Virus record (IMG/VR): IMGVR_UViG_3300028534_000017
Span: 8,284 to 72,283 of that record
Length of the DNA stretch: 64,000 nt
From: a virus
Reading direction: 5' to 3' (one strand)
Below, in pieces: positions 16,041 to 64,000 of this stretch. A program made the position numbers and the translations under genes. The notes beneath the pieces were generated by a model. It saw only the letters and a program-made list of their open reading frames with translations. It had not been told where the DNA came from and did not search any database. How positions within the stretch are numbered: position 1 is the stretch's first letter; each line of letters begins with the position of its first letter.

Positions 16041-16055
16041 GTACTCTCCTTTATA

Positions 16056-16896: not shown

Positions 16897-16897
16897 A

Positions 16898-17146: not shown

Positions 17147-17156
17147 GTTATTTCCT

Positions 17157-17354: not shown

Positions 17355-18925
17355 TCTTCCTCCTCTTTTATCCATTCGTATTTTAAATTTCCACAATTAT
17401 AAATTTTTCTATAACCATTTTCAAGCATAATTTGTTTTTCGGTTTTAGAATCTTTATAATTTGGTAAATGTTTTAATTTTGACTTAATAAATTTCGATCT
17501 AGTAAACAATTCTCCATTTTTAGTATAACTATAACTAGGTAAAGATTCTCCTATAAAAGTAAAACCCAAAGTCAGATATAAATTTTTATTTGAATATGCT
17601 ATTCTTTTATTCGCATATGATAAAATACTTTTTGGTCGATAATTTTTAATAAAATACTTAAATAATTTACTAGCTCCTCCAACCACAGAAGTATTTAAAA
17701 TATTACAGAATCTTATTAATTCATATTCGTATGTTTTATCGTACCTTGGAGTGCTAAAAGTCATTAAACTGACCAAAGTATCTTTATGATATAAACCCAG
17801 TTTTATTTTACCGGGAGTACTTCCCTGCAAATGATTATTTTCTAAAAATAATTTAGAATCTTTAGAAGATACCTCTTTAACGATCAACTTTCTAGCGTAG
17901 TACGATTTGATATTTTTTCCAAGTTTATTCCGAATAATACTTTTCCAAATATCTTTCTTTTGTATCCATTCATTTTCAAAAATATGTAATAAATTGAAAT
18001 TTTTTTCTTCCATCACTTGAGTTTTTTCTAAATGTTTAAATTTATATTTATATTCTTGATCAATTTTACTTAAACCAAAACTATGCCAATACAAACCATT
18101 ATATTCTATAGCTAAATTATATTCCGGTATTAAAATATCAATTTCTTTACCTATTAATGATTTATCATTTTCAATAGTTTCTATATTTAAACTATTAATG
18201 AATGAATTTACTTCCTTTTCTCCTTCGGAATATTTAAGATTTTTTATTTGATATTCTATACCAAGCTTTCGGAATTGTTTGTATGGTAAAGTTTCGGAAC
18301 AATTAAAATATTCTCTAAACAATTTCCATTTAATTTTTTTATTTTTATCTAAAAAATTTTTTATAAGAAAATCCCTATTATAAAATAATTCCTTATTTTG
18401 TCGATGACCAAGAATTATATTATTAATTCTTTTCTTTCTTAGTAAAATATTTTCTTCTTCTAAAATTATTCGATTTTTAAAATTATCCTTTCCTGGACGA
18501 TTGTCCCAAGAACCATATTTTTCAATAATTGTTTTTTTACGTTTTTCCAATCTTTTTTCCGCGTTTTCTTTTTCCCGAGTAGATGAATTTTTTTTATTTT
18601 TTGGATCAGTATTAAAACATTTTAAATTACAATATCTTTTAACATATGGTCCGTGATTTGGATTAGCTTTTTCTATTTTAAATTTTAATTCTTTAAAACA
18701 TGTTTCGCATAAAGGTTTTTGGTTATAATCATTTTTTATACACCACAATAAATCCCCAAACGATATAGATTCTTTATTTGGAATATTATTTAAATAAGTA
18801 TAGATATCCCTTATCAAATCCACATCCTTCTTTAAAGTAAAACTATTTAATTTTTCATTACCATTTTTATCAAAGAATTGAAATTTAGATATTTTTTTAA
18901 GAAGTTCTTCCTTCGTTAAACTCAT
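17351..18925 (-). mobile_element. Free-standing Hef-like homing endonuclease
   Basis: EIDILIPEYNLAIEYNGLYWHS, FLENNHLQG and GGASKLF; paralog of 14550..16040; overlaps the 3' end of the beta' N gene. Confidence 0.8.
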
Positions 18926-20435
18926 CTATTTTATCCTTGTATATTTTCTGAATTGCTAATTTCATATTTCTTTCAAAAACTTTTCCCATCATTGATCCAG
19001 TTTTTATAAGATTCTTAACATATTCCGGGGCTTTCTGCATAGCTTCGAAATATAATAATCTTTCATCTGCAGAAAGATTATCTAATTCTGGCATTTCTAT
19101 AATTTCATTTGGAGAATCCCCGTATGCTCTTGCTAACATATAACCAGACATACTCCATTTATATAAATTAGGTTGTCTTTCAACGATCATTTTAAAATCG
19201 GAAATATAATTTTTAAGAAAATCCGTTAAATCATCTTCTGGTATAGCTATTTCAAAGTTTTTATCAAAACTATCATATACATACTGAATATATTCAACTA
19301 TACTGAACAATTTAACTTCTCCTTCTTTTTCTATAATTTCAATTTCATTTTCTTCGTATTTAAGAAATAAGTATCTGAGTAGTTCTGGTAAAAATAACTT
19401 TTTAACGCTTTCTTCCGGAAGACCAATTTGATAAGGTTTTAGAACTGGATTAGGAACAATTACCGCCCTTTGTGAAAACTCGATTGTTTTACCAGTTAAA
19501 GATTCCCTAACATAATTTTTGGTTTTTTGAAAATTAAATTGTAATATCTCGTCATAAATCGCGTTAACCGATTCCTGATATTTATATACAGTATTTCCAA
19601 AAAAATCGGAATTAGCATTATAAAGATTATCCATAATACTAGTGCCTCTAGAAATATTTTTAAGTATTTCTATATAAGCTTTAGAAATTGGATGTGGAAT
19701 AATTTTAACATTTGAAATTTTAATAACTTGTCTTGAACCAGGAGGTGTTACTAAAATATAATTTATAAAAATATGTTTAATATATTTATAATTAATTTTA
19801 TCTGTAATTAAATGTCTAAATCTATAACGTTCCTCTAATCCTTCATCTTCCTGTACAGGATGTTCCAATACTTCTCCGGTTTCATCATCTATTGTAAAGT
19901 ACTCTGTTTTTAAATCATCTTTAAGAAAATTAAATAATAATCTTAATGAATTGATATCAAATACTGGAAAATCGGTTAAACAATTACCTATTTCCTTTTC
20001 CGATATTTTTGAAGTCCGTAATAATTTTTCTTTACTAAGACTATAAAAATAAGGATTCTCCTTATTTGCATTATATTGAAATTTATTTAATAGATTTTTT
20101 ATCGCATTAAATCCAAAAACTTCTTGTAACGCATTTTTAAAATCTGGATTTATAATATATATACCTTCGGGTAATAATATTTTAGCGAATTGTGAATTAC
20201 GTTTATCGCTTAATCCACATTCAACTTCACAAAGATCACAAACTTCTCCCGCATTAATTCTTCCAAATAATTTTTCACATTGGCATTTATAATTTTTCAA
20301 TGGTCCAAATATCTGTTCGGAATATAATGAATCCTTGCTAAAGATGTTATGTTTGTTACTTGTGTATATTGCTGGATTGGTTACCTCAGGTAATTCATCC
20401 ACTCTCTCGTACTCTTTAAAATTTAATGTGATCAT
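18897..20435 (-). CDS. rpoC: RNA polymerase beta'-like subunit, N-terminal half (set 1)
   Basis: LYSEQIFGPLKNYKCQC...CDLC (Zn site), RESLTGKTIEFSQRAVI and ERQPNLY (NRAPTLH equivalent). Confidence 0.9.
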   Translation of the reverse strand: MITLNFKEYERVDELPEVTNPAIYTSNKHNIFSKDSLYSEQIFGPLKNYKCQCEKLFGRINAGEVCDLCEVECGLSDKRNSQFAKILLPEGIYIINPDFKNALQEVFGFNAIKNLLNKFQYNANKENPYFYSLSKEKLLRTSKISEKEIGNCLTDFPVFDINSLRLLFNFLKDDLKTEYFTIDDETGEVLEHPVQEDEGLEERYRFRHLITDKINYKYIKHIFINYILVTPPGSRQVIKISNVKIIPHPISKAYIEILKNISRGTSIMDNLYNANSDFFGNTVYKYQESVNAIYDEILQFNFQKTKNYVRESLTGKTIEFSQRAVIVPNPVLKPYQIGLPEESVKKLFLPELLRYLFLKYEENEIEIIEKEGEVKLFSIVEYIQYVYDSFDKNFEIAIPEDDLTDFLKNYISDFKMIVERQPNLYKWSMSGYMLARAYGDSPNEIIEMPELDNLSADERLLYFEAMQKAPEYVKNLIKTGSMMGKVFERNMKLAIQKIYKDKIDEFNEGRTS

Positions 20436-36813: not shown

Positions 36814-39800
36814 ATGCCAAAATCAAAAATTAAAATAAATTTTGAGAATGAAAAAGATGGTAAATTAAGATTTTATGAAAAATTTAGCGAGAGTGGAGAA
36901 TTATTAGAGTATGCTTTTATTACTCCAGGTAACGATGATATTCAATATTATACTCAGGATCAAGATATAAAAACTTTTCCAAAATCTCAACTGAATAGTT
37001 TTATTATTGGATTATATAATAACATTTCAGATGAAAAAACAAAATATGATAGAGTAGATAAGAAAAATAAAACAAGTGTTGTTTATTTTAGTCTTCGTAT
37101 GTTTGCTAGTAATTTTCCTTTAGTTCTTTTATTATTTATTCATAAAGGTATTCTTGGAACCTTAAGATACTATGGATTAAAATATTCTAAAAGTAAAACC
37201 AAAGATAGAACAGCTTTTTTAAGCGTTCGTATAAAACAGGGAAATGAACCAGGTTTTTTAAATATATTTACCAATTCTTTATTTGATGAGTACTTAGTAA
37301 ACGGTATTCGTAAAGAAGCTACCAGACTATTCCCATCCGGCGAACATATGGTTTCGGATAAAGATTTAGATAATCCTAAAACTATGGAAAAATATTTTAG
37401 TAAGTATTATTCTTTAAATAAGTACCTGAATCTCAAAAACTCTAAAACGAATTTTATAGATATTACTACTAAGAAGGTTCTTGCTTCTAAAGGTGACCCA
37501 AGCGAGTTCATGGAAGTATTTGGTAAGTTCATGCCTGATAAACTTATCAATGGTAAAATAGAGGATATATCAGATCTAAGCAATTTAAGAATCCGTATGT
37601 CCGAAAGTATTACCCATCTTGCTTATAAAGTACTTCAACAAGGTATCGGATTCATGAAAAATAATAAAGGACAATATAATATTAAATTAGATATTGATCC
37701 AAATTTTATTTCAAAAGAATTGCAAGCAAGTGGTATGTTACAGTACTCTCAAAATATCAATCCTTTAGCGGAATTAACTCTCAGTAATAAAATTACAAAA
37801 ACTGGTGTTGGAAATCCAAGAAAAGAACAGATCAGCATGCAAAGACGTGATTTAAATAAATCATATTTTGGAACTATTTCTCCAAGTACTACTAATGAGT
37901 ACGGCGGAATTGGACTTAATCAAACTCTTAGTAATAAAGCTATTATTAAAGATAGATTTGGAAATATTTTAGTTCGTCCTTTTGATAATGATATTAATGG
38001 TTTGGATTTACTTAGTGCCACGGATAGTCTTAGCCCATTCTTTGAGTACGATGATACAACTAGACGTATTATGGGTAACCAGCAGGTTTCTCAATTCACC
38101 CAGATAGAATCTCCAGATGAACCTTTGGTACAAACTGGTATGGAAGCTATTATACCACATCTAGTTTCAGATAGATTTGCTATCAAAGCTAAGGAAGATG
38201 GCAAAGTAGTTCGTTTAGATCACGAAATGGAATTAAAATATAAATCCGGTTCAAAGGATTATTTTAATTTAGATGATGTAATGTCTAGAACTTCACGTGG
38301 GGTTTACTTACCACTTAAATTAACCCCTTTAGTTAAAAATGGTGAAAAAGTTAGAAAAGGTCAAGTACTTGCTACAACTTCTTCTTTAAAAACTGGTAAG
38401 TTAGCAGTTGGTAAAAATCTAGTAATCGCTTTAATGTCTTATCGTGGTATGAATTATGAAGATGGTTGGGCAGTTTCAGAAAGTATTGGTAAAAAATTTA
38501 AAAATACTTTATTAAAACGCATTTTGATTCCTATTGATAGAGAATCAAATATTTTAGAATATAAAATAAAAGTTGGTCAAGAAACTAAACCAGGAGACAT
38601 ATTAATAGAATATTCTAGTACTAAAGGTAATGAATCCGTTGAAGCCTTAGTTCAATCAGCTACTGAAGGAATGGATGGAGAAGCTACGGATGGTTTTGAT
38701 GTAAGTATTGGACGTAACTTTCATCAAGGTAATATTAGATATAATTCACCAGGTGGAAAAATTAAAACAGTTAATATTTTAATTAATTCTCAACATATTG
38801 ATTCTAAATTACTTACCGAATGGAAATTACTTAATAAAGAATTACAGAAAAAAATTAAAAATTGTAAAGAATTATTAGATCCAGTAAAACAAATGGATTG
38901 TCAAGATCAAATAAATAATCTTAAATCTGCGGTAGTCGGTGGACATAAATTAAATAATGATGTATTTGATGGAACAATTATAGAAATGTATATAGAATAT
39001 CCAAACCCTATTCAAAATGGTTCTAAATTTACATTACTTGGAAGTTCTGGAGGTAAAGGAACTGTTCAATATATGATTCCAGAAGGAAAGGAACCAGTAG
39101 CAGAAAAAACTGGATTAAAAATTGAATTCTTACCAACCCCTATTTCAAATATATCTCGTAAAAATATTTCAGTAGTTCTTAGTATGTACACTGGAAAAAT
39201 ATCGTATTTCTTAAATAAAAAATTAAAAGAACTTATAGAAAGTTCTAGATTAAAAGAAGCGGAAAAATTATTATTAGAAACGTTATATTTCCTCGATAAA
39301 ACTAAAGATAAAGAATTGATTGGATATGTAAAAGAATTTTTTACTAAACCAACTAAAGAAATTATTGCTATGGTAAAACAGTCCGATCCTTTACAAAAAC
39401 CAGCTTTTCCAATATTAGTAACGCCATTTAAAAATAAATTACTTATGGAAGATATTAAAAAAGCAGCCGCTTTTTTAAAAATACCATTAAACGAAAAAGT
39501 AATTATTAACGAAGAAGATGGGACGGTTTCGGAAAGAGAAGTACCGGTAGGTATTGCACCAATTGCGTTATTAGAACATATTCCTCAATTTATGGCTAAT
39601 GTTCGTGGTTCTGTAAATATTAAAAAATCTGCTATGACTGGGCAGGGACGTTCTGGTACTAAAGAAGGTAATGGAGCAGTTCGTATTGGTTTATACGATA
39701 TGTTTGGTTTAAGTTATAGAAAAAGTACTGCTCTTTTAAAAGAAATGCACTTTATGAAATCAGATAATGCCGCAGCTACTAATAAATTAAATAATAGTAT

Positions 39801-39927
39801 TCTAAGAACTGGTAAAGTTCCTAGTCAAGATGAATTAGAATTAGATGAAGAAACAGAAAAATTATCTAAAGCTAAAAAACTTATAGAAACGTATTTTTAC
39901 GGTGCTATGTTAAAACCAAACTTATAA
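36814..39927 (+). CDS. rpoB: RNA polymerase beta-like subunit, unsplit (RNAP set 2, probably virion-packaged)
   Basis: FGTISPSTTNEYGGIGL, PFFEYDDTTRRIMGNQQ, GKNLVIALMSYRGMNYEDG, GSKFT...GGKG and GAVRIGLYD. Confidence 0.92.
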   Translation: MPKSKIKINFENEKDGKLRFYEKFSESGELLEYAFITPGNDDIQYYTQDQDIKTFPKSQLNSFIIGLYNNISDEKTKYDRVDKKNKTSVVYFSLRMFASNFPLVLLLFIHKGILGTLRYYGLKYSKSKTKDRTAFLSVRIKQGNEPGFLNIFTNSLFDEYLVNGIRKEATRLFPSGEHMVSDKDLDNPKTMEKYFSKYYSLNKYLNLKNSKTNFIDITTKKVLASKGDPSEFMEVFGKFMPDKLINGKIEDISDLSNLRIRMSESITHLAYKVLQQGIGFMKNNKGQYNIKLDIDPNFISKELQASGMLQYSQNINPLAELTLSNKITKTGVGNPRKEQISMQRRDLNKSYFGTISPSTTNEYGGIGLNQTLSNKAIIKDRFGNILVRPFDNDINGLDLLSATDSLSPFFEYDDTTRRIMGNQQVSQFTQIESPDEPLVQTGMEAIIPHLVSDRFAIKAKEDGKVVRLDHEMELKYKSGSKDYFNLDDVMSRTSRGVYLPLKLTPLVKNGEKVRKGQVLATTSSLKTGKLAVGKNLVIALMSYRGMNYEDGWAVSESIGKKFKNTLLKRILIPIDRESNILEYKIKVGQETKPGDILIEYSSTKGNESVEALVQSATEGMDGEATDGFDVSIGRNFHQGNIRYNSPGGKIKTVNILINSQHIDSKLLTEWKLLNKELQKKIKNCKELLDPVKQMDCQDQINNLKSAVVGGHKLNNDVFDGTIIEMYIEYPNPIQNGSKFTLLGSSGGKGTVQYMIPEGKEPVAEKTGLKIEFLPTPISNISRKNISVVLSMYTGKISYFLNKKLKELIESSRLKEAEKLLLETLYFLDKTKDKELIGYVKEFFTKPTKEIIAMVKQSDPLQKPAFPILVTPFKNKLLMEDIKKAAAFLKIPLNEKVIINEEDGTVSEREVPVGIAPIALLEHIPQFMANVRGSVNIKKSAMTGQGRSGTKEGNGAVRIGLYDMFGLSYRKSTALLKEMHFMKSDNAAATNKLNNSILRTGKVPSQDELELDEETEKLSKAKKLIETYFYGAMLKPNL

Positions 39928-48572: not shown

Positions 48573-49787
48573 ATGTCTTTTAAAAAAGTCATAAGTACAG
48601 AAACAATTAACAGAGTACATGAAACTAAAAATATAACTCAAGAAATTATTGGCACGAGTATTCACGAAGTACCAATACAATATAGAATTCTAAGTAAGAA
48701 TGATTTCGGAATTCATAAGAATAGAATTAACTTAGGTATCTTTAATAAAAAAACCGATTTTAGAATTTCCGAGAAAGAATCTGCAATCGTTCTTAATAAA
48801 GAAACGTTGGAATTGCAAGCACCAACGATTCCAGAAATACAAAGTACCCCTGATAATTATTTTTTATTTTGGAAGTATTCGTTTCAAAAAAGAAATAATG
48901 AAATTTTAGTTATTAAGGATAAAAATAATAATAAAGAATTTCAAATTAATCTTACATATTCTTTCGCTAAAGAAATTATTACCCATTTACTTTATTCGGA
49001 TGGATCATTTCAACTTTCTAAAAATTTTACGGAAACTGAAAAAATATTTATAAATAATTTTATTATTTTTAAAAATAATAAAATTAGTTTTAACAAAGGT
49101 ATTCTAGTAAATTCAAATTATAAATTTTTATTAGGTTTAACAGAGTTATTTAAAAATTCTGGAATTATACCAGGAAATATTAATTTATATAGTGTTGGTT
49201 TAATTTTTAATCTTTTAGAAGCTAGTTACAGTATTCGTAAAAAGGATGAAAATTTTATAGTAAGATATAAGTTCAGTTCGTACTTATATAAGTTATTAAT
49301 AAAAGATAATGAATTAGATATTTTGGAAGACTTACAATTTAAATTCAGAAATTTAAAATATTTTATAGTAAATGGTCAAATTAAAACTAAGTACTTAAAA
49401 TTTTATAATGATATAAAAGATATTAGAAGTATGGAAAATAATTTAGATCCAGTTGGTATAAATTCTGGAGAAATTGAATTAATTCCATGTACTGATATAG
49501 TATTTGAAAAAGTTAAAGTAAATCAGGATAATTTAAAAATGGTTGATTTAGTTATGGAAAATGACAATGCTCATAATTTTTATTTAGATGGATTGCCATT
49601 ATTAAAAAATAGTGATGGAGATATCCTTGCAGCTATGGCGCTGTTTTCTAAAGAAGCGGCTAAAGAAGCCTCTGAAAATTTTAGCGCTAGTAATAAAACG
49701 AAATTTGTAAATCCAGCCAATTTAAATATCCAGAACTGGGGTGTGAAAACAGATAGCCAATTAGGGTTATATAACGCTACAAAATAG
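48573..49787 (+). CDS. rpoC: Split-intein C-fragment (aa 1-346, with LAGLIDADG-like domain) fused to a 58-aa RNAP beta' C-extein carrying the rest of the catalytic motif
   Basis: Blocks F/G VDLVMENDNAHNFYLDGLPLLKN|S with Asn at 49608-49610 and Ser at 49611; HLLYSDGS; extein SDGDILAAMALFSKEA...DSQLGLYNAT matches beta' after NADFDGD. Confidence 0.85.
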   Translation: MSFKKVISTETINRVHETKNITQEIIGTSIHEVPIQYRILSKNDFGIHKNRINLGIFNKKTDFRISEKESAIVLNKETLELQAPTIPEIQSTPDNYFLFWKYSFQKRNNEILVIKDKNNNKEFQINLTYSFAKEIITHLLYSDGSFQLSKNFTETEKIFINNFIIFKNNKISFNKGILVNSNYKFLLGLTELFKNSGIIPGNINLYSVGLIFNLLEASYSIRKKDENFIVRYKFSSYLYKLLIKDNELDILEDLQFKFRNLKYFIVNGQIKTKYLKFYNDIKDIRSMENNLDPVGINSGEIELIPCTDIVFEKVKVNQDNLKMVDLVMENDNAHNFYLDGLPLLKNSDGDILAAMALFSKEAAKEASENFSASNKTKFVNPANLNIQNWGVKTDSQLGLYNATK

Positions 49788-49796
49788 GATAATAGT

Positions 49797-50684
49797 ATGG
49801 CTTTAAATACTAAAATATTTATAGAACGTTCTATAAACAAACATGGAAATAAATACGACTATTCAAGATCGGTATATAAAACTTCATCTACCCCAATAGA
49901 AATTATATGCCCAGAACATGGAGAATTTTTGCAAAAGCCAGATTATCATATGAATGGTTCTGGTTGTCCTAGATGTAATAAATGGAAAATTAATACGCAA
50001 AAAGAAATTATAAATCGGTTTTTAAAAATTCATGGAAATAAATACGATTATTCAAAAGTTAAATATCTTAAAACTAATTTAGATGTAGAAATCGTTTGTC
50101 CGAAACATGGGAGTTTTTTTCAACAACCATTGGGACATTTTCGTGGTCAAGGATGTCCAAAATGCTATAATGAAAAATCACGAAGAAATCAAAGCGACGT
50201 TATAGAAGATTTTAAAAAGGTTCATGGAGATAAATATGATTATTCAAAAGTTAAATATTTTAATTCTAAAAATAAAATTGAAATAATTTGTTCTAAACAT
50301 GGATCATTTTTTCAATTACCTGATATACATAAACAAGGTTCAGGTTGTCCAAAATGTAAAAATTCACTTGGTGAAAATAAAATAAGAAATTATTTAGAAG
50401 AAAATAATATAGAATATATTCAAGAAAAAACTTTTAAAGATTGTAAATTTAAAAAAGTTTTGCCATTTGATTTTTATTTACCAGAATTAAATACCGTAAT
50501 CGAATTTGACGGAGAACAGCATTTTAAAAAGGTGGACCATTTCGGTGGAGAAAAATCTTTTAAAATTACTCAAACAAGAGATTTTATAAAAAATAAATAT
50601 TGTAAAAATAACAATATAGAACTTATAAGAATACCATACTATTACTTTAATAATATAGAAGAATTCTTAGAATACAAATTATAG
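49797..50684 (+). mobile_element. Free-standing endonuclease with CPxHG zinc repeats and PD-(D/E)XK (DUF559/Vsr-like) domain
   Basis: Repeated KYDYSKV..EIICPKHGSFFQ..H..G.GCPKC; FDFYLPELNTVIEFDGEQHF. Confidence 0.8.
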
Positions 50685-50716
50685 ATATAAATATTAATAA
50701 GATAAGGAAAACAATA

Positions 50717-53700
50717 ATGCAATCTGCACCTCAAAATAATCAAGAAATAGACTTTACACAAATTATGAACGAACAGGATATCATAACTTACTGGAATAAA
50801 ATATTTAAAGTTAATGATTTTAAAGAAGATGAAACAGCTAGAATAGTTTTTCAAGCTAAAGTTAAACAAGAGATTCGTGGAAAATATGAAAATATAAAAG
50901 ATTTTGAAATTACAGATAACGTTCAATTAAAGAACCCAAATGATTTAATAAACTATTTAAAAAATAAAATAGTTTCTTTACCTCATCATGATTGTGGTAT
51001 TTCGATAAGTACCGGAATTTTTGAATACGATCCAAAAAACCTTAATGAAAAAGGTAATGTAAAAGCTCCAAGTATTAATACTTTTAAAAAATTAAATACT
51101 ATCGTACTTGATATAGATGCGCATATTAAAGGAACTAAAGAAAGATTTCGTGTTTATTCTTTAGAAGAAAATTATCAAAAGATGGTAATTATTAGAAGTT
51201 ATTTAGAATTATTTTCTTTATTAAAAGGACATGGTTTTGAATCAGTAATTCCTTCTTTTAGTATGGTAACTGGTGGAGGAATTCAAATAGCTTTTGATTT
51301 TGACCAAGATTTATATGCTGGAGATGCGAAGCTAATTTTTAATAGACTCGGTGATATTCTTGGTAAGAAAACTTTTGGAGTTCTTGTTAAAGATATTATG
51401 GGTAACTTCTCTGAAATTATTATGGACTTTGATGCATCGTTCAAAGATATTTCCCATACTCAGCGGTTATGTGGAATTGTTCACCAAAAATATGGAAACA
51501 TTCCAACATTCTGTACTATTGGAACTACCGGAGTATTTGATTTTTTTAATCCGGAATTATTAAAAGAAGAATTTACTAAATTAATAACTGAAATAGATAG
51601 TGAAATTTTAGCTAGTGGATATACTGATATCCAAAAGAAAAGTTATGAAGATTATTACATTGGTATTATTAAAAGCTTTCAAAAGCTTAGTGAAAGTACT
51701 CAATCTTTAATGTTCCCAAAAGATGTTTTAGCTGAAGATGCGAGAATTGATTTGGCTCAAAATAAAAATAATTTAAATATTTTAAATACTAATCCTCTTG
51801 AGTACGAGTTAGTACAAAATCTCAAACAAAAAATTCAAGATGGTTTATTTAATTTAGCAGTTCTGTTCCCAGATGTCAATTTTGAGGATCATGGTAGTTA
51901 TTGGAAAATTAATTGTTTATTTCATGAAGAGACTAAACCAAGTATGGCAATTTATAAGAACTCTTTAAAATTTGAAGATTTCCACGATAATCAATCTTAT
52001 AGCATAGTTGAAGCTTTTATGAAAGTTCATGAACTTAATAAAGGCGACGCAATTAATAAAATTGCAGATTTAGCTGGAATTAAATTCAAGAAAACGGATA
52101 GAAAAGAATTTGAAAAAATGGAAATGGAAGAACTTATTGAAGTTCTTATTGATAAAATTAATCAGGAGGATTATGTTTACTATAGATTAGCTAATAAAAC
52201 TAGAACTTGTATTATTAGACATATTGATTCGGGAGAAATTTATTCATTCGATGGTATGGTAATGTTAGCTAATCATGTTCTTAGTAATCAATTAAATGTT
52301 ACCGATGTTGATTTCGAATTTCAAAAAGAATTTGCTAGAGCATTCGAAAGAAAAATTCTTATAGAAGCTTTTGAAGAATTTCAACCTGGTAAACCAACAG
52401 TATTTCAGAGAAATTTTATTAAATTTGTAAATCTTTGGGTACCAAGTAAAAATTATGAAAAAGCCCATTCAAGAAATGATGAGCTTAAAGAAGAATTCCC
52501 GGAACAAATGGAACTATCAGATACTATTATTATGCTTAAGGAAAAAACTCCTTGGACGTATAAGTATATTCTTCAATTAGTACAGAGAGGTGACTTAGGG
52601 TGGTTTATTAACTGGTTAACAGCTACTGCCAATCATTATGTGCTTCCTACTATTCCAGTTTTCTTTGGGGTTCCTGGAGCTGGTAAAAACTTATTCGTAA
52701 GTACTATTTTAGAATGGTATATAAATTCAGAGTTTACTAAAATTCTTAGTACTGATAGACTTATGTCAAATTTTAATAGTATTTTAGAAAGTTGTTCTTT
52801 AATGGTTCTAGATGAAGGAGATTTCAGTACTCAAAAAAGTAACGATGCATTAAAACTTATTACTGGTTCAGATAAACTTTTAATAGAGAAAAAGGGAGTC
52901 GATACCCAATCAAAAACTAAGAAGTTAAATATAATGATGTTTAGTAATGGTCAGGTTCCGGCAAGACACCCAAGTTCAGATAGACGTATGGTTTATTTTA
53001 ATTCTGAAATTACTTTATTAGAATTAACGGAATCTCTTGGAGTAAGCATAGAACAATTCGTGAGTAATGTTAAAGAAGAATTGGAATTATTTTGGGCAAT
53101 TGTTTTAAATAATAAATTAGATAAACCAAAAGCTATGACAAATCTTAAAAATGCTACTTTTTATACCCAAATTTTAAAAATGCATCCATTTGGAGAATTA
53201 GTGCTTTTAATGTTAAAAGGCGAATGGAAAGATATTGGATTACAACTTAATGAAAACGTATCTGATCCATTAATGATGAAAAATAATCTCGAATTACTCG
53301 AACAGATTAAATTACAATTTTCTAAAAGTGGAAGTATTTCTTTAACCCTTATTAATAGATATTTACAAAGTCTTAATTTTAAAGTAAGTACAAGTGTTCA
53401 AAGATTCTTAGCTAATAATAATTTAGAATTTTTTGGAATAAGTATCGAAATAAAAGATAACGAAGTTGTTTTAGTTATTAATAAAAAGAAACTTGAATCT
53501 TCATTAAGCTCTTCTAATATTATTTTAGAAGAGATTCCAGAAATTACTAAAAAAATCAAAAGAGTTCAGACTAAAATTAAAAAAATGAATCCTTTAGATA
53601 CTTTAAACGTTGAAGAGAATTTAATAGCTGAAGAAGAAGTTCACTACAAAGAAGAGAAAAATAATTTATCTTCTTTAAATCAACTCCCACAGCAGCAAAA

Positions 53701-53737
53701 TATACCAGAACCTCCAAAATTAAAAACTATAAATTAA
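50717..53737 (+). CDS. Primase-helicase (primase-polymerase N-terminus, Zn-finger-like middle, SF3/D5-like helicase)
   Basis: VLDIDAH, TGGGIQ, CLFHEETKPS, GVPGAGKN (Walker A), MVLDE (Walker B). Confidence 0.82.
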   Translation: MQSAPQNNQEIDFTQIMNEQDIITYWNKIFKVNDFKEDETARIVFQAKVKQEIRGKYENIKDFEITDNVQLKNPNDLINYLKNKIVSLPHHDCGISISTGIFEYDPKNLNEKGNVKAPSINTFKKLNTIVLDIDAHIKGTKERFRVYSLEENYQKMVIIRSYLELFSLLKGHGFESVIPSFSMVTGGGIQIAFDFDQDLYAGDAKLIFNRLGDILGKKTFGVLVKDIMGNFSEIIMDFDASFKDISHTQRLCGIVHQKYGNIPTFCTIGTTGVFDFFNPELLKEEFTKLITEIDSEILASGYTDIQKKSYEDYYIGIIKSFQKLSESTQSLMFPKDVLAEDARIDLAQNKNNLNILNTNPLEYELVQNLKQKIQDGLFNLAVLFPDVNFEDHGSYWKINCLFHEETKPSMAIYKNSLKFEDFHDNQSYSIVEAFMKVHELNKGDAINKIADLAGIKFKKTDRKEFEKMEMEELIEVLIDKINQEDYVYYRLANKTRTCIIRHIDSGEIYSFDGMVMLANHVLSNQLNVTDVDFEFQKEFARAFERKILIEAFEEFQPGKPTVFQRNFIKFVNLWVPSKNYEKAHSRNDELKEEFPEQMELSDTIIMLKEKTPWTYKYILQLVQRGDLGWFINWLTATANHYVLPTIPVFFGVPGAGKNLFVSTILEWYINSEFTKILSTDRLMSNFNSILESCSLMVLDEGDFSTQKSNDALKLITGSDKLLIEKKGVDTQSKTKKLNIMMFSNGQVPARHPSSDRRMVYFNSEITLLELTESLGVSIEQFVSNVKEELELFWAIVLNNKLDKPKAMTNLKNATFYTQILKMHPFGELVLLMLKGEWKDIGLQLNENVSDPLMMKNNLELLEQIKLQFSKSGSISLTLINRYLQSLNFKVSTSVQRFLANNNLEFFGISIEIKDNEVVLVINKKKLESSLSSSNIILEEIPEITKKIKRVQTKIKKMNPLDTLNVEENLIAEEEVHYKEEKNNLSSLNQLPQQQNIPEPPKLKTIN

Positions 53738-53769
53738 TAAGCGAATAATTTAGAAAACTATTAATAATT

Positions 53770-53806
53770 AACTATTCATGGTAGTACCATGAATAGTTTT
53801 CCTGTC
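53770..53806 (+). terminator. AACTAT-family hairpin plus TTCCTGTC after primase-helicase
   Basis: AACTATTCATGGTA-G-TACCATGAATAGTT then TTCCTGTC. Confidence 0.6.
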
Positions 53807-53875
53807 GTTAATTTTTAGAACGTTCTAAAAATTAATATATTTTGTCGAGAGAAATAAAAGGATATATCTATCCTT

Positions 53876-54127
53876 TTATTTCTTATCTCCTTTTTTACGA
53901 GGAATATAATCATATTCCTCCTCCATTTTTTTATAACACTTAACGATTTCCTCTCGAAAATAATTAATTTTTGCGAAAAGTACATTTCGAGCCTCTTTTT
54001 TATAAGCTGCTCTAATACCTGCTATTAACTCAGTTTCTAAGGCTTTATTAAAAGCCTCCAATTGTTTGCTTAATTCCATTAATCCTTTACCATCGTACGG
54101 ATTTACAAATTTTTCTTTTTCAGCCAT
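53876..54127 (-). CDS. Hypothetical protein; lone antisense gene with its own promoter
   Basis: 83 aa; promoter copy 4 upstream. Confidence 0.6.
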   Translation of the reverse strand: MAEKEKFVNPYDGKGLMELSKQLEAFNKALETELIAGIRAAYKKEARNVLFAKINYFREEIVKCYKKMEEEYDYIPRKKGDKK

Positions 54128-54231
54128 TTGAATCTTTCTTCTCCATTATCGGAGGTATTAAATAATCCAGCGTTAGGATTATGCTATAAAAAATAAACTA
54201 CTCTTGCGAATAGTTAACCTTTTACTGTTTA

Positions 54232-54266
54232 TAAGATATCTATATAATAAGTAACTTATTTTAAAG
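54232..54266 (-). promoter_or_regulatory. Bipartite phage promoter candidate, copy 4
   Basis: CTTTAAAATAA-GTTACTTATT-ATATAGATATCTTA. Confidence 0.7.
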
Positions 54267-54330
54267 TCTTTTATACAAGCAAATTTTAATTAAAAGAACT
54301 AATCATTATATAAAATCAAAAGAGATTAAA

Positions 54331-55119
54331 ATGAAATTTGAGATAAATAAAGAATTATTGTTAGAGGATTATATGCAATATATGATGGATCATTGGTCAA
54401 ATAATGATTCTATAAATGACGTTAATTTTGAAAAAGTTAAAGCGGCTGCACAACCAATAGATAATAATATTCAAGATGAAAGAATAATCGACGAATTTAA
54501 ACCACCTAAAGTTGGTTCAAATATATTGAAACCAGTTTTTCCAAAATTTGACGATCCGGAACATACTTCTTTAAGAATGCTCAGAAGTTTTTCAAAAGGT
54601 CATAATTTAGATTACAAAACTTCGGTTATTAATGCTCATAATTATATGGATGAATTACACCATCAGGAGAATGATTGGAAAGTTCATGGTACTAATGGAA
54701 ATCCTAAAGATTCTATAGAAGGCGCTTATCAAACGAGTAACGCTGCTAGGAACACCGACGTCAATCGTTTTAGAACTGGTTATAAAATGGATGCGGTGAC
54801 CCCTTATCTAACTAAAGAGAATGTTCCTCCAGTTGCAGATATGGATTTACAACAACAGACTGCTATGACTATAGCTGGTTTAAGCCAACACGGAAATTCA
54901 AAAAATCATTTACAACATTTTGCTAATATGCTTCGGGGTGATAAACAGGCAGGTTATGAAATGTATTTAACAGATCATCATACTAAACCGGACGTCGCCA
55001 CTATTAATAGATGGGATGGTATATATGGTAAATATAATATAGATAGAACGATGAAAATACTAGATAAAAGATTTTCAAATGAACCAAATTATTTAAAAGA
55101 ACTACATAAATATAAATAA
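54331..55119 (+). CDS. Hypothetical protein with MKFEINKELLLE N-terminus
   Basis: 262 aa; shared N-terminal motif. Confidence 0.6.
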   Translation: MKFEINKELLLEDYMQYMMDHWSNNDSINDVNFEKVKAAAQPIDNNIQDERIIDEFKPPKVGSNILKPVFPKFDDPEHTSLRMLRSFSKGHNLDYKTSVINAHNYMDELHHQENDWKVHGTNGNPKDSIEGAYQTSNAARNTDVNRFRTGYKMDAVTPYLTKENVPPVADMDLQQQTAMTIAGLSQHGNSKNHLQHFANMLRGDKQAGYEMYLTDHHTKPDVATINRWDGIYGKYNIDRTMKILDKRFSNEPNYLKELHKYK

Positions 55120-55137
55120 ACAAAAGGAAACAATCCA

Positions 55138-56580
55138 ATGCCAATAAAATTATTAAACGTTGAGAAATTTATTAATTCTCCAGAATCTGGTCCAAAATCA
55201 ACAAGACCGATAAAAACAGCTAAAACTTTCACAAGAAATCAAAATAATGAACTAGTCCCTAATTCTGGAAGTTTTTATGATCCAAGTATTTTTGGTTTTA
55301 GTTCAAGAGAAATTTTTGATCAATTCGCTTATATAAAATTAGAGGAACCAGTTCTCCACCCATTCGTATACAAAAATATAGGTTCTCTTGGAGGACTATT
55401 TAATAAATGTGTTAACAAAGCAATTAAATGTAATATTGTTAATGGCGTACTGGAAGATGCTAATGCTTCCAAAGGTTCTTCTGGAGGAAATGGGGTTAGT
55501 TTCCTTATTAATAACTGGAATAAGATTAACTTTAATAAATACCGAAATGATAAAAATAAAGACTTTGTTGATTTATTACAGCAAGATAAAAAATTAATTA
55601 TTATAGATAAGATACCAGTAATTCCAATAGGATATAGAAATTATTCTAATAAACATGGAATGGTAGAAGAGGATGAAATTACAGATATTTATAAAAAAAT
55701 AGTAAATATTAATGAAAGTAAAGATTGGGTAAAAGAATTAGATCAAGTGGAACAAAATGACTTTGAACAAGTAATTCAAAGTATTTATAAAAATACTTCT
55801 AAAAAAGAATATGTTCAAAGATATATTCAAGCTCTTTATGAATATTTTTTAGATAAATTAAATTCTAAAGATGGATTCTTTAATGCTTCTTTATTTGGTA
55901 AACGTGTTGATAATGTTGCTAGATATGTTGCAAACGCTCAACCGGATATTCCGGCAGATAGTGCCGCTTTTCCTTGGCAAGGTCTTTTAATAATGTTTGA
56001 TGTTTTTGTAATAGCTTATTTAAATAAACCAGAGTACGAGAAAGTTTCTAAACAATTAGGAATGAAAGAATTACTTATAGATGATATTGGAAAACAATTA
56101 GAATATATTTATAGAAATACAGAAGAGTATTTAAAAACTTATCCACATCATGAAGAATTATGGATTCAATTACTTACAGATATATTTAATGATAATCCAG
56201 AAATTAGAGTAATTACTAAAAGGGATCCGGGATGGACTCCAGTATCTTGGTGGGCATTTAAACCATTAATATTAACTGGAGTACAGTATCAACTTATAGT
56301 ACCTAGTTTAATTTATGCTCCAATCGGTGGTGATAGTTTCTCTAGTAATTATATTATTAAAGATGATTTATCCGAAGCTGCTCAAAATAATATTATTTTG
56401 GAAAATGATGATTTTATAGTATCGTTACCAAATAATACTGAAAATAAGGTACAAAAAATATATAATAGTTTTTCATTAGTACAAAATTTAAAAATGAATT
56501 CGTCGGAAATAATTAATGAAAATATATCAGAAGATGATTTCGAAGCGTTTATGGCAACTGCTGGGATTAGGAGAATATAA
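55138..56580 (+). CDS. rpoC: RNAP beta' N-terminal part (aa 1-399) plus split-intein N-fragment (aa 400-480), set 2
   Basis: GSFYDPSIFG, IKLEEPVLHP, KIPVIPIGYR, LFGKRVD, KRDPGW..WAFKP; catalytic motif breaks at APIGGD|SFSSNYII (Ser codon 56335). Confidence 0.85.
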   Translation: MPIKLLNVEKFINSPESGPKSTRPIKTAKTFTRNQNNELVPNSGSFYDPSIFGFSSREIFDQFAYIKLEEPVLHPFVYKNIGSLGGLFNKCVNKAIKCNIVNGVLEDANASKGSSGGNGVSFLINNWNKINFNKYRNDKNKDFVDLLQQDKKLIIIDKIPVIPIGYRNYSNKHGMVEEDEITDIYKKIVNINESKDWVKELDQVEQNDFEQVIQSIYKNTSKKEYVQRYIQALYEYFLDKLNSKDGFFNASLFGKRVDNVARYVANAQPDIPADSAAFPWQGLLIMFDVFVIAYLNKPEYEKVSKQLGMKELLIDDIGKQLEYIYRNTEEYLKTYPHHEELWIQLLTDIFNDNPEIRVITKRDPGWTPVSWWAFKPLILTGVQYQLIVPSLIYAPIGGDSFSSNYIIKDDLSEAAQNNIILENDDFIVSLPNNTENKVQKIYNSFSLVQNLKMNSSEIINENISEDDFEAFMATAGIRRI

Positions 56581-57743
56581 TGGCAATTAATATAGAAAAT
56601 AGTACAAGACTTTATAACTCTAAAATAATTATACCAAATGCTTTTAGACCACCAGAATGGTTTTTTAAAACTAAAGATATTTTTAGAAAAGAAATTTTAG
56701 AAAGTATTAAAAAAAATGGATTCTTAGATAAAGAATTAGTACGTAAAATGCTTAACGAAGTTCTTGAAAATAAAGTTAAAATAAAATTTCCTTTAAATGA
56801 TATAAATGTAAAAAAATTATATGCCGATATGTATGATATTTTTGAAGACGATGTTTTTATTTGGAAATATCAATTAATTTATGAAATTGGTTTCTTTTTA
56901 AGTACTTTAAAACCCAGTTCCTTCTCTCCGGAGAGTATGATACTCCCAGAAGAATTTAAAAAAGAAAAAGAACGTATTAGATTACAGTATGAAAATTCTC
57001 CTAAAAAAGAAAAAGATATTATTAAAGCTAATAAAGAATTAGATAATCTTGCTGAAAAAGTTATGGAATATTTTCGTAAGAATAATATATCTGTGGCTGA
57101 CTTAATCGATTCTGGTTCAAAAGGATCAGTTGATGATATTAGAAAACTTCTTCTTGGTGTTGGTTTAAGTATCAATGCTAAGGGAGAAATTAATGATGTT
57201 ATTCTTAAAGCCCATTCAGAAGGATTAGATAAAACACAATTCTTTAATTATAGTTCTCAAGGTATTGTATCACTGTATTCTAAATCAATGAATACGGCTA
57301 AACCTGGATATTTAATACGTCAACTTTATACTATTATGGAAACATTGAACTTATCTAAATTAAATGACTGTGGTACTAAAAAATATTTTGAATTTAAAAT
57401 ACCAAAAGGTAAAGATGGTAAAAAAATCTTATTTAATCTTAAAGGTAGGGTTCTTGATACAGGTGATATTATAGATCACGAAGATGAAAGTTATTTAGGT
57501 AAAAAAGTTAAATTAAGAAGCCCTCTTTATTGTCAAGCAAGAGATGGTATATGTAAAACTTGTTATAATCCTAAAGCAGTTGAAGAATTAAAAATGGTTC
57601 CAGGAAGTAAAGTTGGTCAAATGTCTGTAGCATCGTTGGCGGAAAGCTTAGTTAATTTGACGCTTAAGGCCAGTCATGTCGGATTATCTTTAGATACAGA
57701 AGAAATAGATCTTACGAAAGATGTGGAACTTTTTTGTAAATAA
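56580..57743 (+). CDS. rpoC: RNAP beta' C-terminal part (set 2)
   Basis: SGSKG, SEGL, TAKPGYLIRQL, DCGT, LRSPLYC..ICKTCY and SLAESLVNLTLKASHVG. Confidence 0.9.
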   Translation: MAINIENSTRLYNSKIIIPNAFRPPEWFFKTKDIFRKEILESIKKNGFLDKELVRKMLNEVLENKVKIKFPLNDINVKKLYADMYDIFEDDVFIWKYQLIYEIGFFLSTLKPSSFSPESMILPEEFKKEKERIRLQYENSPKKEKDIIKANKELDNLAEKVMEYFRKNNISVADLIDSGSKGSVDDIRKLLLGVGLSINAKGEINDVILKAHSEGLDKTQFFNYSSQGIVSLYSKSMNTAKPGYLIRQLYTIMETLNLSKLNDCGTKKYFEFKIPKGKDGKKILFNLKGRVLDTGDIIDHEDESYLGKKVKLRSPLYCQARDGICKTCYNPKAVEELKMVPGSKVGQMSVASLAESLVNLTLKASHVGLSLDTEEIDLTKDVELFCK

Positions 57744-58318: not shown

Positions 58319-59410
58319 ATGGGTAAAAAATTAACGCAAGAAGAAATTATAAAACGATTTGAAGAAGTTCATGGTGATAAATACGATTATTCAAAAGTTA
58401 ATTATATTAATTCCGGAACTAAAGTAAATATAATTTGTCCAGAACATGGAGAGTTTTTACAAACCCCAAGTAATCATTTGAAATATAATTGTCCAAAATG
58501 TTCTAATTTAAAAAAATCAATAGAAAGTCATATAAAAGATTTTAAAAAAATTCATGGAGATAAATACGATTACAGTAAAGTCCAATATATAAATACTATG
58601 ACTAAGGTAGAAATAATATGTCCCAAACATGGAAGTTTTTTTCAAACCCCTATGTCTCACAAATCTGGAAATGGTTGTCCAAAATGTTCTAAAGAAAAAC
58701 AATCTGGAAAATTATCTAATTTTTTAAAAACTTTGTCGAAAGAACATTTCGACAAATATGATTATAGTAAAGTTAATTATACAAATAGATTTAAAAAAAT
58801 AGAAGTAATTTGTAAAAAATGTAATAAATCATTTTGGTGTATACCAAATAATCATTTGAAAAATAATTCGGAAAATACATTTTGTCCAAATTGTTATATT
58901 AATAAAAATACATATACTAAAGATAAAATTATCTCCGATTTTAAAAAAATTCATGGAGATAAATACGATTATAGTAAAGTCCAATATATAAATACTATGA
59001 CTAAAGTAGAAATAATATGTCCAGAACATGGGAGTTTTTTTCAAAGACCAAATGATCATCGCAATGCCGTTGGTTGTCCAAAATGTGCTCAAGAAAATTC
59101 TGAATCAAAAGGTGAAAGAAAAGTCCGAGAATTTCTAGAAGAAAATAATATCAAATATTCCCAAGAGGTTAACCTCTTTAATAATTACCGATTTGATTTT
59201 TATCTAGAAGATTTAAATACTGTTATTGAGTACGATGGAAAACAACATTTCGAACCAGTAGATTATTTCGGTGGATTAGAAGGATTCTTAAAGACTCAAG
59301 AACGGGATAAAATTAAAACAGAGTATTGTTTAGAGAATAATATAAGAATAATTCGAATAGCATATTTTGAAGAAGTTGAAGAAGTTCTCGAAGGAATTCT
59401 AAATGTCTAA
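58319..59410 (+). mobile_element. CPxHG-repeat PD-(D/E)XK endonuclease
   Basis: Repeats plus FDFYLEDLNTVIEYDGKQHF. Confidence 0.8.
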
Positions 59411-60317
59411 AAAATTAACCCAAGAAGAAGTTATAAAAAGATTTAAAGAAGTTCATGGAAATAAATATGATTACAGTAAAGTTATTTATAAAAAATCAAA
59501 AGAAAAGGTAAATATAATTTGCTCAGAACATGGAGAGTTTTTACAAACACCAAATAATCATTTAAGTGGGTATGGTTGTTCTAAATGTGCAGGTAATTTA
59601 AAATTAACCCTCGATGAGGTTATATCCGATTTTAAAAAAATTCATGGTAATAAATACGATTACGGTAAAGTTAATTATAAAAATAATATGTCTAAGGTAG
59701 AAATAATATGTCCAGAACATGGAAGTTTTTTTCAAACGCCATCCGATCATAAATCCGGACAAGGATGTCTAAAATGCTATAATAAGCGAAGGAAAAATCA
59801 AAAACAAAAAATGAAATTAAGTTCTTTAGAATATACAAATAATTTTGATATTATTCATAATAATAAATACGATTATAGTAAAATAAATTATACTCATTCC
59901 CATTCAGAAATAGAAATAGTATGTCCAGAACATGGAAGTTTTTTTCAAAAACCATACATTCATAAAAGTGGACATGGTTGTCCAAAATGTTCTGAATCAA
60001 AAGGTGAAAGAAAAGTCCGAGAATTTCTAGAAGAAAATAATATCAAATATTCCCAAGAGGTTAAACTATTCGATAATTATAGATTTGATTTTTATCTAGA
60101 AGATTTAAATACTGTTATTGAGTACGATGGAAAACAACATTTCGAACCAGTAGATTATTTCGGTGGATTAGAAGGATTCTTAAAGACTCAAGAACGGGAT
60201 AAAATTAAAACAGAGTATTGTTTAGAGAATAATATAAGAATAATTCGAATAGCATATTTTGAAGAAGTTGAAGAAGTTTTAAAACCTTTAATAACTGGTA
60301 GTCGTGAGCTAGTTTAA
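59403..60317 (+). mobile_element. CPxHG-repeat PD-(D/E)XK endonuclease (tandem paralog)
   Basis: Nuclease domain 59991-60278 nearly identical to 59099-59386. Confidence 0.8.
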
Positions 60318-62403: not shown

Positions 62404-64000
62404 ATGGCGGTAACACAAGAAGAATTTATAAAATTATCGAAAAAAAATCATTCTGATAAATACGATTATTCAAAAGTTAATTATATTAATAAAAATACTA
62501 AAGTAGAAATTATCTGTCCAGTACATGGTAGTTTTTTCGTAACTCCAAATAATCATTTAAAAATTTCAACTAGAACGGGAGAATCGATGGGTGGTTGTCA
62601 AATTTGCTCTAAAAAAAAATTATTAACTCAAGAAGAAATTATAAAAAGATTTGAAGAAGTTCATGGTGATAAATATATTTATAAAAATGTTAATTATATT
62701 AATAAGAATACTAAAGTAGAAATAATATGTCCAAAACATGGAAGTTTTTTTCAAACTCCGATCGATCATTCTTCTGGACATGGTTGTCCTAAATGTGCTC
62801 ATTCTAAAAAATTTCTAGGAAATATAGAAATATTGAAAAGATTTTATAGTATTTATGGAAATAAATACATGTACGATTTACCAGAAAATGCAGATACTGG
62901 AACTAAAATAAAAATAACTTGCCCAGAGCATGGTGAATTTATTACTACAGTTGGAGAGCATTTTAAACATGGTTGTAAAAAATGTGCAGGTACCTTTTTA
63001 AAAACTACGGAAGAAGCAGTTAAAGATTTCAAAAAAGTTCACTCCGATAAATATGATTATTCGAAAGTTAATTATATTAATGCTATGGAAAAAGTAGAAA
63101 TAATATGTCCAAAACATGGTAGTTTTTTTCAAAGTCCAAACAATCATTTAAGTTCTGGTCATGGTTGTCCAAAATGTACTAGTACTCGTTCCAAAGCGGA
63201 GGAAGAAATTTACGAATTTATAAAAGATAAACACCCAGATTTAGAAGTTCTTCAAAATCATAAAATAGGTAGAATGGAACTCGATATTTATATTCCAGAA
63301 TTAAATTTTGCTATAGAATATAATGGAGTGTATTGGCATTCTTATATGCATTCTAATAAAGCAACTTCTAAAAATCAAACAAACGTTTATTATAATAAGA
63401 AAAGACATTTGGATAAATTCCAAAATTGTACTACTTTAGGAATTCATTTATTTCAAATTAACGAGTTAGAATTTTTAAATCCAATTAAAAAAGATATTTG
63501 GTTAAGTAAAATACTTTTAAAACTTGGAAAAATTCCTAATAAAATTCCAGGTAGAAAATGTATTATAAAAGAGGTTCCAAAAAAAGAATCTAGAGACTTT
63601 CAAGAACTTAATCATTTACAAGGATCTATAAATTCGCAGAAACATTATGGTTTATATTATCAGGATGAATTGGTTCAGATATTTACTTTAGGAGCTTCTA
63701 GATATAATAAAAATTTTGATTATGAAATTCATAGAATATGTACTAAAAAATTTACCATAGTACATGGTGGAGTTTCTAAACTTTATAAACATGTTTTAAA
63801 AGAATTAAATAATCCAAAAATTATAACATATGCTAATAGACGTTGGAGCGCTTTAAATGATTCTAATCTTTATAAACAATTAGGATTAGAATACATTAAT
63901 GAAAGTTCTCCAAATTTCAATGTTATAGATTTAAAAACTAATAAAACCTATCCAAGAAATACTTTTCAAAAACATAAATTGGAAAAAATTCCTGGTTTCG
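62404..64000 (+). mobile_element. Hybrid endonuclease: CPxHG repeats plus Hef-like nuclease and C-terminal domain (runs off the window's right edge)
   Basis: Hand translation: MAVTQEEF...CPVHGSFF...ELDIYIPELNFAIEYNGVYWHS...NHLQG...GGVSKL. Confidence 0.78.

Follow-up and report, generated by a model that had tools for sequence, protein, structure and literature searches.

Probable Protein Trans-Splicing at the Catalytic Aspartate Motif of a Jumbo-Phage-Type RNA Polymerase

The DNA analyzed here is a stretch of 64,000 nucleotides (hereinafter, the window) that comprises bases 8284-72283 of a 130-kb viral contig from IMG/VR (IMGVR_UViG_3300028534_000017; CheckV completeness 46%). The contig carries two sets of genes for multisubunit RNA polymerase (RNAP), as is the case in AR9/PBS1-type and phiKZ-type phages, and the beta' subunit of one of these, denoted set 2, is probably produced by trans-splicing through a natural, atypically split, cysteine-less intein. 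Two open reading frames (ORFs) on the plus strand are involved, P0001 (48573..49787; 404 amino acids, aa) and P0002 (55138..56580; 480 aa). Their order is swapped, that is, the gene for the C-terminal half comes first, 5.3 kb upstream of the P0002 gene. The core of a first-pass annotation of this DNA, namely that a split intein encoded by distant, permuted genes interrupts the D-x-D-G-D motif of the polymerase, is supported by the predicted fold of the C-terminal fragment, the predicted docking of the two fragments, residue conservation, gene order in related loci and the existence of contiguous (cis) inteins at the same point. We infer that splicing proceeds to completion in vivo.

The window has a G+C content of about 26%, and several studies have sequenced nearly identical DNA in metagenome runs from hydrothermal vents and from epibionts. 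The nearest cultured relatives, AR9/PBS1-type and phiKZ-type jumbo phages, are very distant (about 27% identity in the best tblastn matches of the beta' pieces), and a tblastn search with P0001 against 50,697 phage records produced 0 matches, so that no cultured relative is known for this protein.

A Catalytic Motif Divided Between Two Genes

P0002 reads ...LIYAPIGGD(399)/S(400)FSSNYII..., where the slash marks the junction, and its alignment with beta' sequences ends at D399. The portion up to this residue (the N-extein, aa 1-399, ending in ...APIGGD; 55138..56334, plus strand) was identified as the beta' N-terminal fragment (beta' N) by its match to phrog_2986 (1e-28), by phmmer matches to bacterial beta' chains, and by a translation check. 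It is followed by an 81-aa tail that starts with Ser400-Phe (aa 400-480 and the stop codon; 56335..56580, plus strand), which we denote IntN, for the N-terminal intein fragment, on the basis of conservation, the predicted interface and the ratio of non-synonymous to synonymous substitutions (dN/dS), as described below.

P0001 reads ...MVDLVMENDNAHNFYLDGLPLLKN(346)/S(347)DGDILAAMALFSKEA...QLGLYNATK, with ...VDLVMENDNAHNFYLDGLPLLKN/SDGDIL...GLYNATK as its end across the junction. The first 346 aa are denoted IntC (48573..49610, plus strand), and the remaining 58 aa (S347...K404 and the stop codon; 49611..49787, plus strand) make up the C-extein, which corresponds to beta' 461-514 in the Escherichia coli numbering according to a profile-to-PDB alignment and a translation check. 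Positions 2-58 of the C-extein profile align with beta' 462-514 in about 35 distinct solved chains; each of these matches has an E-value of just 0.27-1, and the register is identical in all of them. This register equates D348 with D462 and D350 with D464, that is, with the second and third aspartates of N-A-D-F-D-G-D, whereas S347 occupies the position of the Phe and D399 of P0002 is the first aspartate. The four junction codons are located at 56332-56334 (D399), 56335-56337 (S400), 49608-49610 (N346) and 49611-49613 (S347).

The translation check found the D-x-D-G-D triad in neither P0001 nor P0002 alone. When D399 is joined to S347, the resulting 457-aa product contains G-G-D-S-D-G-D aligned with N-A-D-F-D-G-D, and distant intein-free beta' relatives read ...GGFNADFDGDAMALFHP...GLYMITK without interruption. 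The first-pass annotation is thus borne out in all the details that were checked, namely that beta' N extends to aa 399 and gives way to an 81-aa tail starting with Ser, that the end of P0001 is beta' sequence from the catalytic motif onward, and that joining restores a triad which neither gene possesses alone. A contiguous GGDSDGD allele among the relatives had been proposed as a check; the family yielded no intein-free allele of this kind, just the distant intein-free beta' sequences with NADFDGD, and the contiguous forms that were found carry cis-inteins at exactly this site, a stronger answer to the proposed check than an empty allele.

The third piece of the set-2 beta' is the beta' C-terminal gene (beta' C; 56580..57743, plus strand; 387 aa), which abuts the P0002 gene and was identified through Pfam (Rpb1_5, 8.7e-7; Rpb1_4) and PHROGs (phrog_2962, 6.5e-22). 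Taken together, the set-2 beta' pieces cover phrog_2986, phrog_2962 and Rpb1 domains 1, 4 and 5. As judged by these sequence matches, P0002 and beta' C represent a multisubunit RNAP beta' of the jumbo-phage type, divided into N and C genes.

An Intein Fold Lacking Its First Strands

The intein in P0001 was recognized by fold comparison only, not by sequence search. Comparison of P0001 with Pfam and PHROGs revealed no intein, LAGLIDADG or RNAP family (a single match, to OCIA, was dismissed as spurious), and phmmer and profile searches of PDB sequences with the IntC family produced nothing real (a match to an ITPase was likewise discarded). The AlphaFold2 model of P0001, built with 83 homologues, has a predicted local distance difference test score (pLDDT) of 85.8 and a predicted template modeling score of 0.80, and its best structural matches are exclusively inteins. 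The top Foldseek matches are the PhoVMA, TliVMA, PI-PfuI and PI-SceI inteins (E-values from 2.6e-5 to 9e-4, probability 1.0). Structural comparison with VIA aligned 264 residues of the model with PI-SceI (Z 11.7) and also matched mini-inteins and split inteins at Z 9-11; the scores for PI-SceI, PI-PfuI, NpuDnaE and Ssp DnaE span Z 9-11.7.

Residue 1 of the P0001 model is paired by VIA with a residue in the range 12-48 in the solved inteins, and in the atypically split Cat intein (6dsl_B) with the residue that opens the C-fragment, which implies that the first strands of the Hint fold are missing from P0001. The Hint part of IntC consists of aa 1-125 and approximately 291-346; the second segment holds block F (...VDLVME...HNF) as well as block G (...LLKN346). 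Besides these two blocks, IntC also includes block B, N4 and an endonuclease-like domain. Two relatives, P0010 and P0065, match the Pfam Intein_splicing model at 24.7 and 26.8 bits, below the cut-off of 35.8, and residue 21 of P0065 aligns with position 25 of the 155 positions of this model. Placement of the split point on the cis-inteins by MAFFT was ambiguous at the N-terminus and was abandoned in favor of structure and Pfam coordinates.

The fold comparisons support the view that IntC is a Hint-fold, class-1-like intein fragment without the first strands. They equally support an atypical split, one that falls near the start of the Hint fold, well ahead of block B and of the site of endonuclease insertion, and results in a short IntN and a long IntC. 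The designation of the intein as atypically split in the first-pass annotation agrees with the conserved IntN core of about 45 aa, with the start of IntC at the start of the Cat C-fragment and with the P0065 coordinates.

The domain inserted in IntC (approximately aa 126-290; 48948..49442, plus strand) appears to have a LAGLIDADG-like, homing-endonuclease fold: VIA matched P0001 residues 125-255 to I-DmoI with Z 4.3-4.7, and the whole-length matches of P0001 to PI-SceI and PI-PfuI include 256-281 aligned residues. No match to Pfam LAGLIDADG was found in P0001. The first motif, HLLYSDGSF, is unique to P0001 and is gone already in a relative with 86% identity, and in the second, FLLGLTELF (consensus FLLGILEGY), the catalytic acid is replaced by Tyr or Phe, which suggests that the domain is probably catalytically degenerate. 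The domain evolves under purifying selection nevertheless (dN/dS 0.10-0.26 against close relatives), so that a structural role is probable. The description of the intein as endonuclease-retaining accordingly holds for the fold only, activity having probably been lost, the acidic LAGLIDADG residues being unconserved even in close relatives.

The Short Fragment and Its Predicted Docking

A tail downstream of D399 is present in all 37 members of the beta' N family; it is 44-90 aa long and starts with S-F in 33 of them. In P0002, the structured core of IntN spans approximately aa 400-454, with a conserved part of about 45 aa, and is followed by a subclade-specific extension. This extension (aa 455-480; 56500..56577; ...DDFEAFMATAGIRRI) follows the pattern xFExxM..GI[KR][KR][IL], which is conserved in a single subclade; short-tailed relatives lack the extension, and it does not take part in the predicted interface. 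A check for covariation between the tail length and the length of the N-terminal part of IntC did not reveal a clear pattern.

The association of the two fragments, for which the first-pass annotation had proposed modeling of the complex, was predicted by folding P0001(1-362) with P0002(385-480) in three runs, along with three controls. The pair reached an ipSAE of 0.90 compared to 0.00 for the best control; the mark of the pair is also reached by 58 of 80 solved complexes and by 2 of 110 mismatched pairs. At least 71% of the contacts are common to the three runs, and the partner pLDDT is at least 67. The predicted interface on the P0002 side covers residues 397-454. The strand starting with S400 pairs with P0001 60-70, the block B strand, and the N-terminal junction (P0002 397-409) is placed beside block F (P0001 320-326) and beside block G and the C-terminal junction (P0001 338-347), an arrangement that in the model corresponds to the active-site geometry of the Hint fold. 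The prediction thus supports the association of IntN and IntC.

Splice Residues and Contiguous Inteins at the Same Point

At the N-terminal junction, G397-G398-D399-S400 are invariant in 31 aligned beta' N homologues, and F401 is nearly so. At the C-terminal junction, N346-S347-D348-G349-D350 are invariant in 83 aligned homologues of P0001, as are D325 (the block F Asp) and N335; the sequence N/SDGD is found in 85 of the 86 P0001 homologues, with a C-extein of about 58 aa. Both nucleophiles, S400 and S347, are serines, which makes this a cysteine-less intein, and the penultimate residue of the intein is Lys, as the first-pass annotation had stated on both counts. Block B was identified as F-R-I-S66-E-K-E69-S70 from topology, contacts and alignment with the cis forms; it is indeed located in the C-fragment, as proposed, but the motif is not canonical.

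Four more distant beta' N genes contain a contiguous intein at exactly the same point. Three of these encode mini-inteins of 179-205 aa (P0173, P0175 and P0176; 604, 632 and 616 aa, respectively), and the fourth, P0174 (915 aa), encodes an intein of 488 aa in which Pfam recognizes a bona fide LAGLIDADG_3 domain. P0173, P0174 and P0175 read GGD/C...N/SDGD. The intein of P0176 starts with Thr (GGD/TFKG...), an unusual residue at position 1 compared to Cys or Ser. The cis-inteins share the S-E-x-x-S pattern of block B with the split form and occur in a genome context unlike that of the split form. A phmmer search of the PDB with a cis mini-intein yielded only spurious matches to the leptin receptor. 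Inteins genuinely home to the GGD/SDGD point of phage beta', and the cis-inteins interrupt a loop that cannot work unspliced, which argues that the S-E-x-x-S chemistry is competent.

According to the scenario that we favor, the set-2 beta' would be made from three genes, with the first two pieces ligated after translation. The P0002 gene would yield beta'(1-399)-IntN (81 aa) and the P0001 gene IntC (346 aa)-beta'(58 aa). IntN would supply the first Hint strands (block A and the N2 region) that IntC lacks, so that the fragments would associate; Ser400 would attack the D399-S400 bond, the N-extein would be transferred to Ser347, and Asn346 would cyclise. A 457-aa beta' N with a contiguous Mg-binding G-G-D-S-D-G-D (junction peptide ...APIGGDSDGDILAAMALFSK) would be released and would assemble with beta' C (56580..57743), non-covalently, as in other jumbo phages, and with the beta subunit. 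Under this scenario, the active site most likely forms only once both proteins are ligated.

Several lines of evidence weigh against this scenario. The usual T-x-x-H of block B is S66-E-K-E69 in P0001 according to our own alignment, so that the block B His is lacking (the position is occupied by E, K, D, N, S or H across the family, with His in some relatives only); the penultimate residue is variable (K, H, A, S, P, C, E, D), and the second His of block F is unconserved, so that three of the usual helper residues are absent. Furthermore, Ser is a less reactive nucleophile than Cys. No match to Pfam Intein_splicing (PF14890) was obtained in P0001 or anywhere on the contig; the search with Hint/intein profiles suggested in the first-pass annotation thus yielded nothing for P0001 itself and sub-threshold scores for the two relatives mentioned above. 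After removal of the exteins, the similarity between the hidden Markov models of the split and cis forms is weak, with P0176 alone weakly significant; we therefore claim the same site but not common descent of the split and contiguous inteins. The score of the predicted complex may partly reflect model memory of solved split inteins. Finally, the set-1 beta' is split non-covalently about 20 residues before the catalytic motif, which indicates that breaks are tolerated nearby.

In the main alternative, the halves bind but splicing is incomplete, so that the intein serves as a docking module only or undergoes a single cleavage (for example, at Asn346, releasing the 58-aa piece), and beta' functions as three polypeptides. 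The docking is predicted under this alternative as well, the natural break of the set-1 beta' before DYDGD provides a precedent, and the block B His, the penultimate His and the block F His are missing or variable. We nevertheless consider it improbable. Ser400, Asp325, Asn346 and Ser347 are invariant in 31-83 aligned sequences with identity down to 29% for IntC and about 40% for beta' N, whereas a pure docking module would not need to keep splice residues. Moreover, about 430 extra residues in the buried Mg-binding loop would hardly fit in the active center as known from established RNAP structures, and the cis-inteins with the same block B must splice for the loop to work. Inteins without the block B His or without the penultimate His can still splice, and hence the missing histidines lower the case for trans-splicing without overturning it.

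Two other residues in the N-terminal Hint part of P0001, His31 (48663..48665) and Ser70 (48780..48782), are invariant. As far as can be judged from the alignment, they may provide another means of activating the N-terminal junction, and a family in which block B lacks its canonical His offers a case in which to examine such activation.

Conservation of the Permuted Arrangement

Among 5.8 billion proteins, P0001 has 86 homologues, nearly all of which are 390-458 aa long and covered over their full length; a profile search of 1.84 billion representatives returned 74 matches, almost all of them to proteins of 380-466 aa that consist of IntC and the extein. The order IntC gene, beta' N-IntN gene, beta' C gene, on one strand, is found in 10 related loci from independent JGI, NCBI and IMG/VR assemblies of different samples (IntC identity 32-94%), with the first two genes 3-7 kb apart. 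A 272-kb relative, G003, shows the identical order with a gap of 13 kb, and beta' C is located 3' of beta' N in all related loci. No second or contiguous set-2 beta' N gene was detected in the relatives G002 (100% complete) and G003 (97% complete), each of which has one copy, so that an intact set-2 beta' elsewhere, which would speak against splicing, is excluded as far as metagenomes allow. The intein parts are under purifying selection, with dN/dS of 0.01-0.26 for the Hint parts and 0.08-0.19 for the IntN core; in the exteins, the ratio is well below 1 as well.

This pattern bears on the possibility that set 2 is the decaying remnant of a polymerase, with the gene for a cis-intein-containing beta' broken by a rearrangement, while set 1 does the work. 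Such an origin might be suspected from the intact beta' with DYDGD on the minus strand and from the many homing endonuclease genes in the region. It appears very improbable, however, because more than 80 lineages keep the arrangement with full-length ORFs, dN/dS stays well below 1 for the exteins and for each part of the intein, the splice residues do not vary, and set 2 has intact genes for beta' C and for beta (36814..39927).

Least credible of all is that the permuted order is an assembly artefact, or that the pieces are joined through trans-spliced intron RNA. The contig is metagenomic and 46% complete, and the Logan unitigs are too short to cover the 9.5-kb locus in one piece, which we treat as neutral evidence. 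Against an artefact, the unitigs of run X1, possibly the source sample, tile positions 49057-57800 without differences, and the same order recurs in the independently assembled loci listed above; misassembly is thus excluded as far as metagenomes allow. Against RNA joining, no group I or group II intron model matches in the window (Rfam; gathering thresholds and E<=1), the intein reading frame runs unbroken into the extein, and invariance of the N/S pair would be needless at an intron boundary. Apparent joints in the Logan unitigs were anchored by 20-26 nucleotides of AT-rich sequence and were taken as noise.

Relationship to Known Split Inteins

Protein ligation relies mainly on split inteins, which are seldom encountered in nature. 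Natural examples with an atypical split or without cysteine are even scarcer and in demand. The halves of a split intein are not constrained as to location or order. Among the closest known systems are the atypical split inteins AceL-TerL, described as a rare natural case and with an IntN of 25 aa (PMC11766414), and Cat (PDB 6dsl), an engineered consensus: all have a short N-fragment and a long C-fragment and come from phage or metagenomic genes. In the system described here, in contrast, the IntN is 44-90 aa rather than about 25 aa, and the IntC reaches 346 aa because the LAGLIDADG-fold domain is kept. The host protein is RNAP beta', in which the intein interrupts the catalytic Asp triad; Ser serves as nucleophile at both junctions, and block B lacks the His.

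As in the fractured genes described by Dassa et al. (2009; PMC2677866), an intein is the place at which an essential phage or metagenomic gene is broken, and genes for homing endonucleases lie in the vicinity. In the fractured genes, the halves are adjacent, follow the N-to-C order and are split at the canonical endonuclease-insertion site, with an endonuclease gene in between (PMC2677866). Here, in contrast, the C-half comes first, the halves are 3-13 kb apart with a primase-helicase gene between them, the Hint fold is split near its start, the endonuclease-like domain remains part of IntC, and the adjacent free-standing endonuclease gene is unconserved.

Cyanobacterial DnaE and Nanoarchaeum PolB are similar in that the catalytic subunit of a nucleic-acid polymerase is produced from two distant genes via trans-splicing; these, however, are cellular DNA polymerases with canonical splits (IntN of about 100-120 aa, IntC of about 35 aa), Cys nucleophiles and no endonuclease domain. 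The phage split intein of Aes123 PolB1 (PDB 9hth; PMC11923092), a structural match of P0001 with Z 10.6, likewise carries Ser instead of Cys as its catalytic residues, but it is split at the canonical site, lacks a domain with the endonuclease fold and belongs to a DNA polymerase. The cis-inteins at the same beta' site differ from the split form in being part of one polypeptide and in mostly starting with Cys.

In a full-text search of the literature, we found no description of any intein in a phage multisubunit RNAP or at the NADFDGD motif, nor of a domain with the endonuclease fold retained in the long C-fragment of a naturally split intein. The large and diverse family of about 85 IntC and 37 IntN sequences comprises matching pairs with Ser/Ser nucleophiles, an early split and a retained endonuclease fold, and is of vent-phage origin. 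Together with the contiguous inteins at the same site, it provides a system to study how inteins split and how the halves drift apart in the genome. If the proposed mechanism is correct, a protein-splicing step inside the Mg-binding Asp triad would render the RNAP obligatorily inactive until two separately encoded proteins meet.

Polymerase Type and Transcription Units

The best AR9 matches of P0002 and P0003 are g145 and g264, annotated as virion RNAP subunits (27-28% identity; E-values of 1e-10 and 3e-6), which weakly suggests that set 2 is a virion-type RNAP. A consensus scan identified 11 terminator-like sites versus 2.6 expected. Terminator-like hairpins at 48376-48403 (plus strand, 5' of the IntC gene), 53849-53920 and 58078-58105 bracket two blocks, one with the IntC, endonuclease and primase-helicase genes and the other with beta' N, beta' C and HU. 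The positions of these predicted sites suggest that the IntC gene may be transcribed with the primase-helicase gene, as a unit separate from beta' N and beta' C. It is conceivable, although on balance unlikely, that trans-splicing acts as a regulatory gate, such that a competent (virion-type) RNAP would form only when two transcription programs overlap or under conditions that activate the His-poor, Ser-dependent intein. Should this be the case, protein splicing would be a temporal or conditional switch of viral transcription.

Neighboring Genes and the Set-1 Polymerase

Directly 3' of the gene for IntC and the C-extein lies a free-standing homing endonuclease gene of the DUF723 type (49797..50684, plus strand), for which the DUF723 matches were obtained in the 93%-identical locus L002. 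There is no counterpart at the corresponding position in L004, and this gene is a neighbor rather than a conserved component of the split-intein system. The region between the P0001 and P0002 genes further contains the primase-helicase gene (50717..53737), an ORF at 54331..55119 and a small minus-strand ORF. Free-standing homing endonuclease genes with DUF723 repeats and a C-terminal nuclease are interspersed among essential genes at 49797..50684, 58319..59410, 59403..60317 and 62404..63999, and L002 contains additional homing endonuclease copies near beta' C and terL.

The set-1 beta' is encoded on the minus strand of the window (12529..20435). The first gene (20435..18897; 512 aa) ends in ...SMSGYMLARA followed by a tail of about 75 aa, and the second (14568..12529; 679 aa) starts about 25 residues before an intact DYDGD. 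The possibility that this beta' is interrupted by introns was dropped because no intron model matches. Two large homing-endonuclease-like ORFs (18925..17351 and 16040..14550) are located between the two genes. The break in the set-1 beta' thus appears to be a non-covalent one, situated immediately ahead of the catalytic motif and occupied by endonuclease genes. In the relative G003, the set-1 beta' halves are adjacent, without the two endonuclease-like ORFs.

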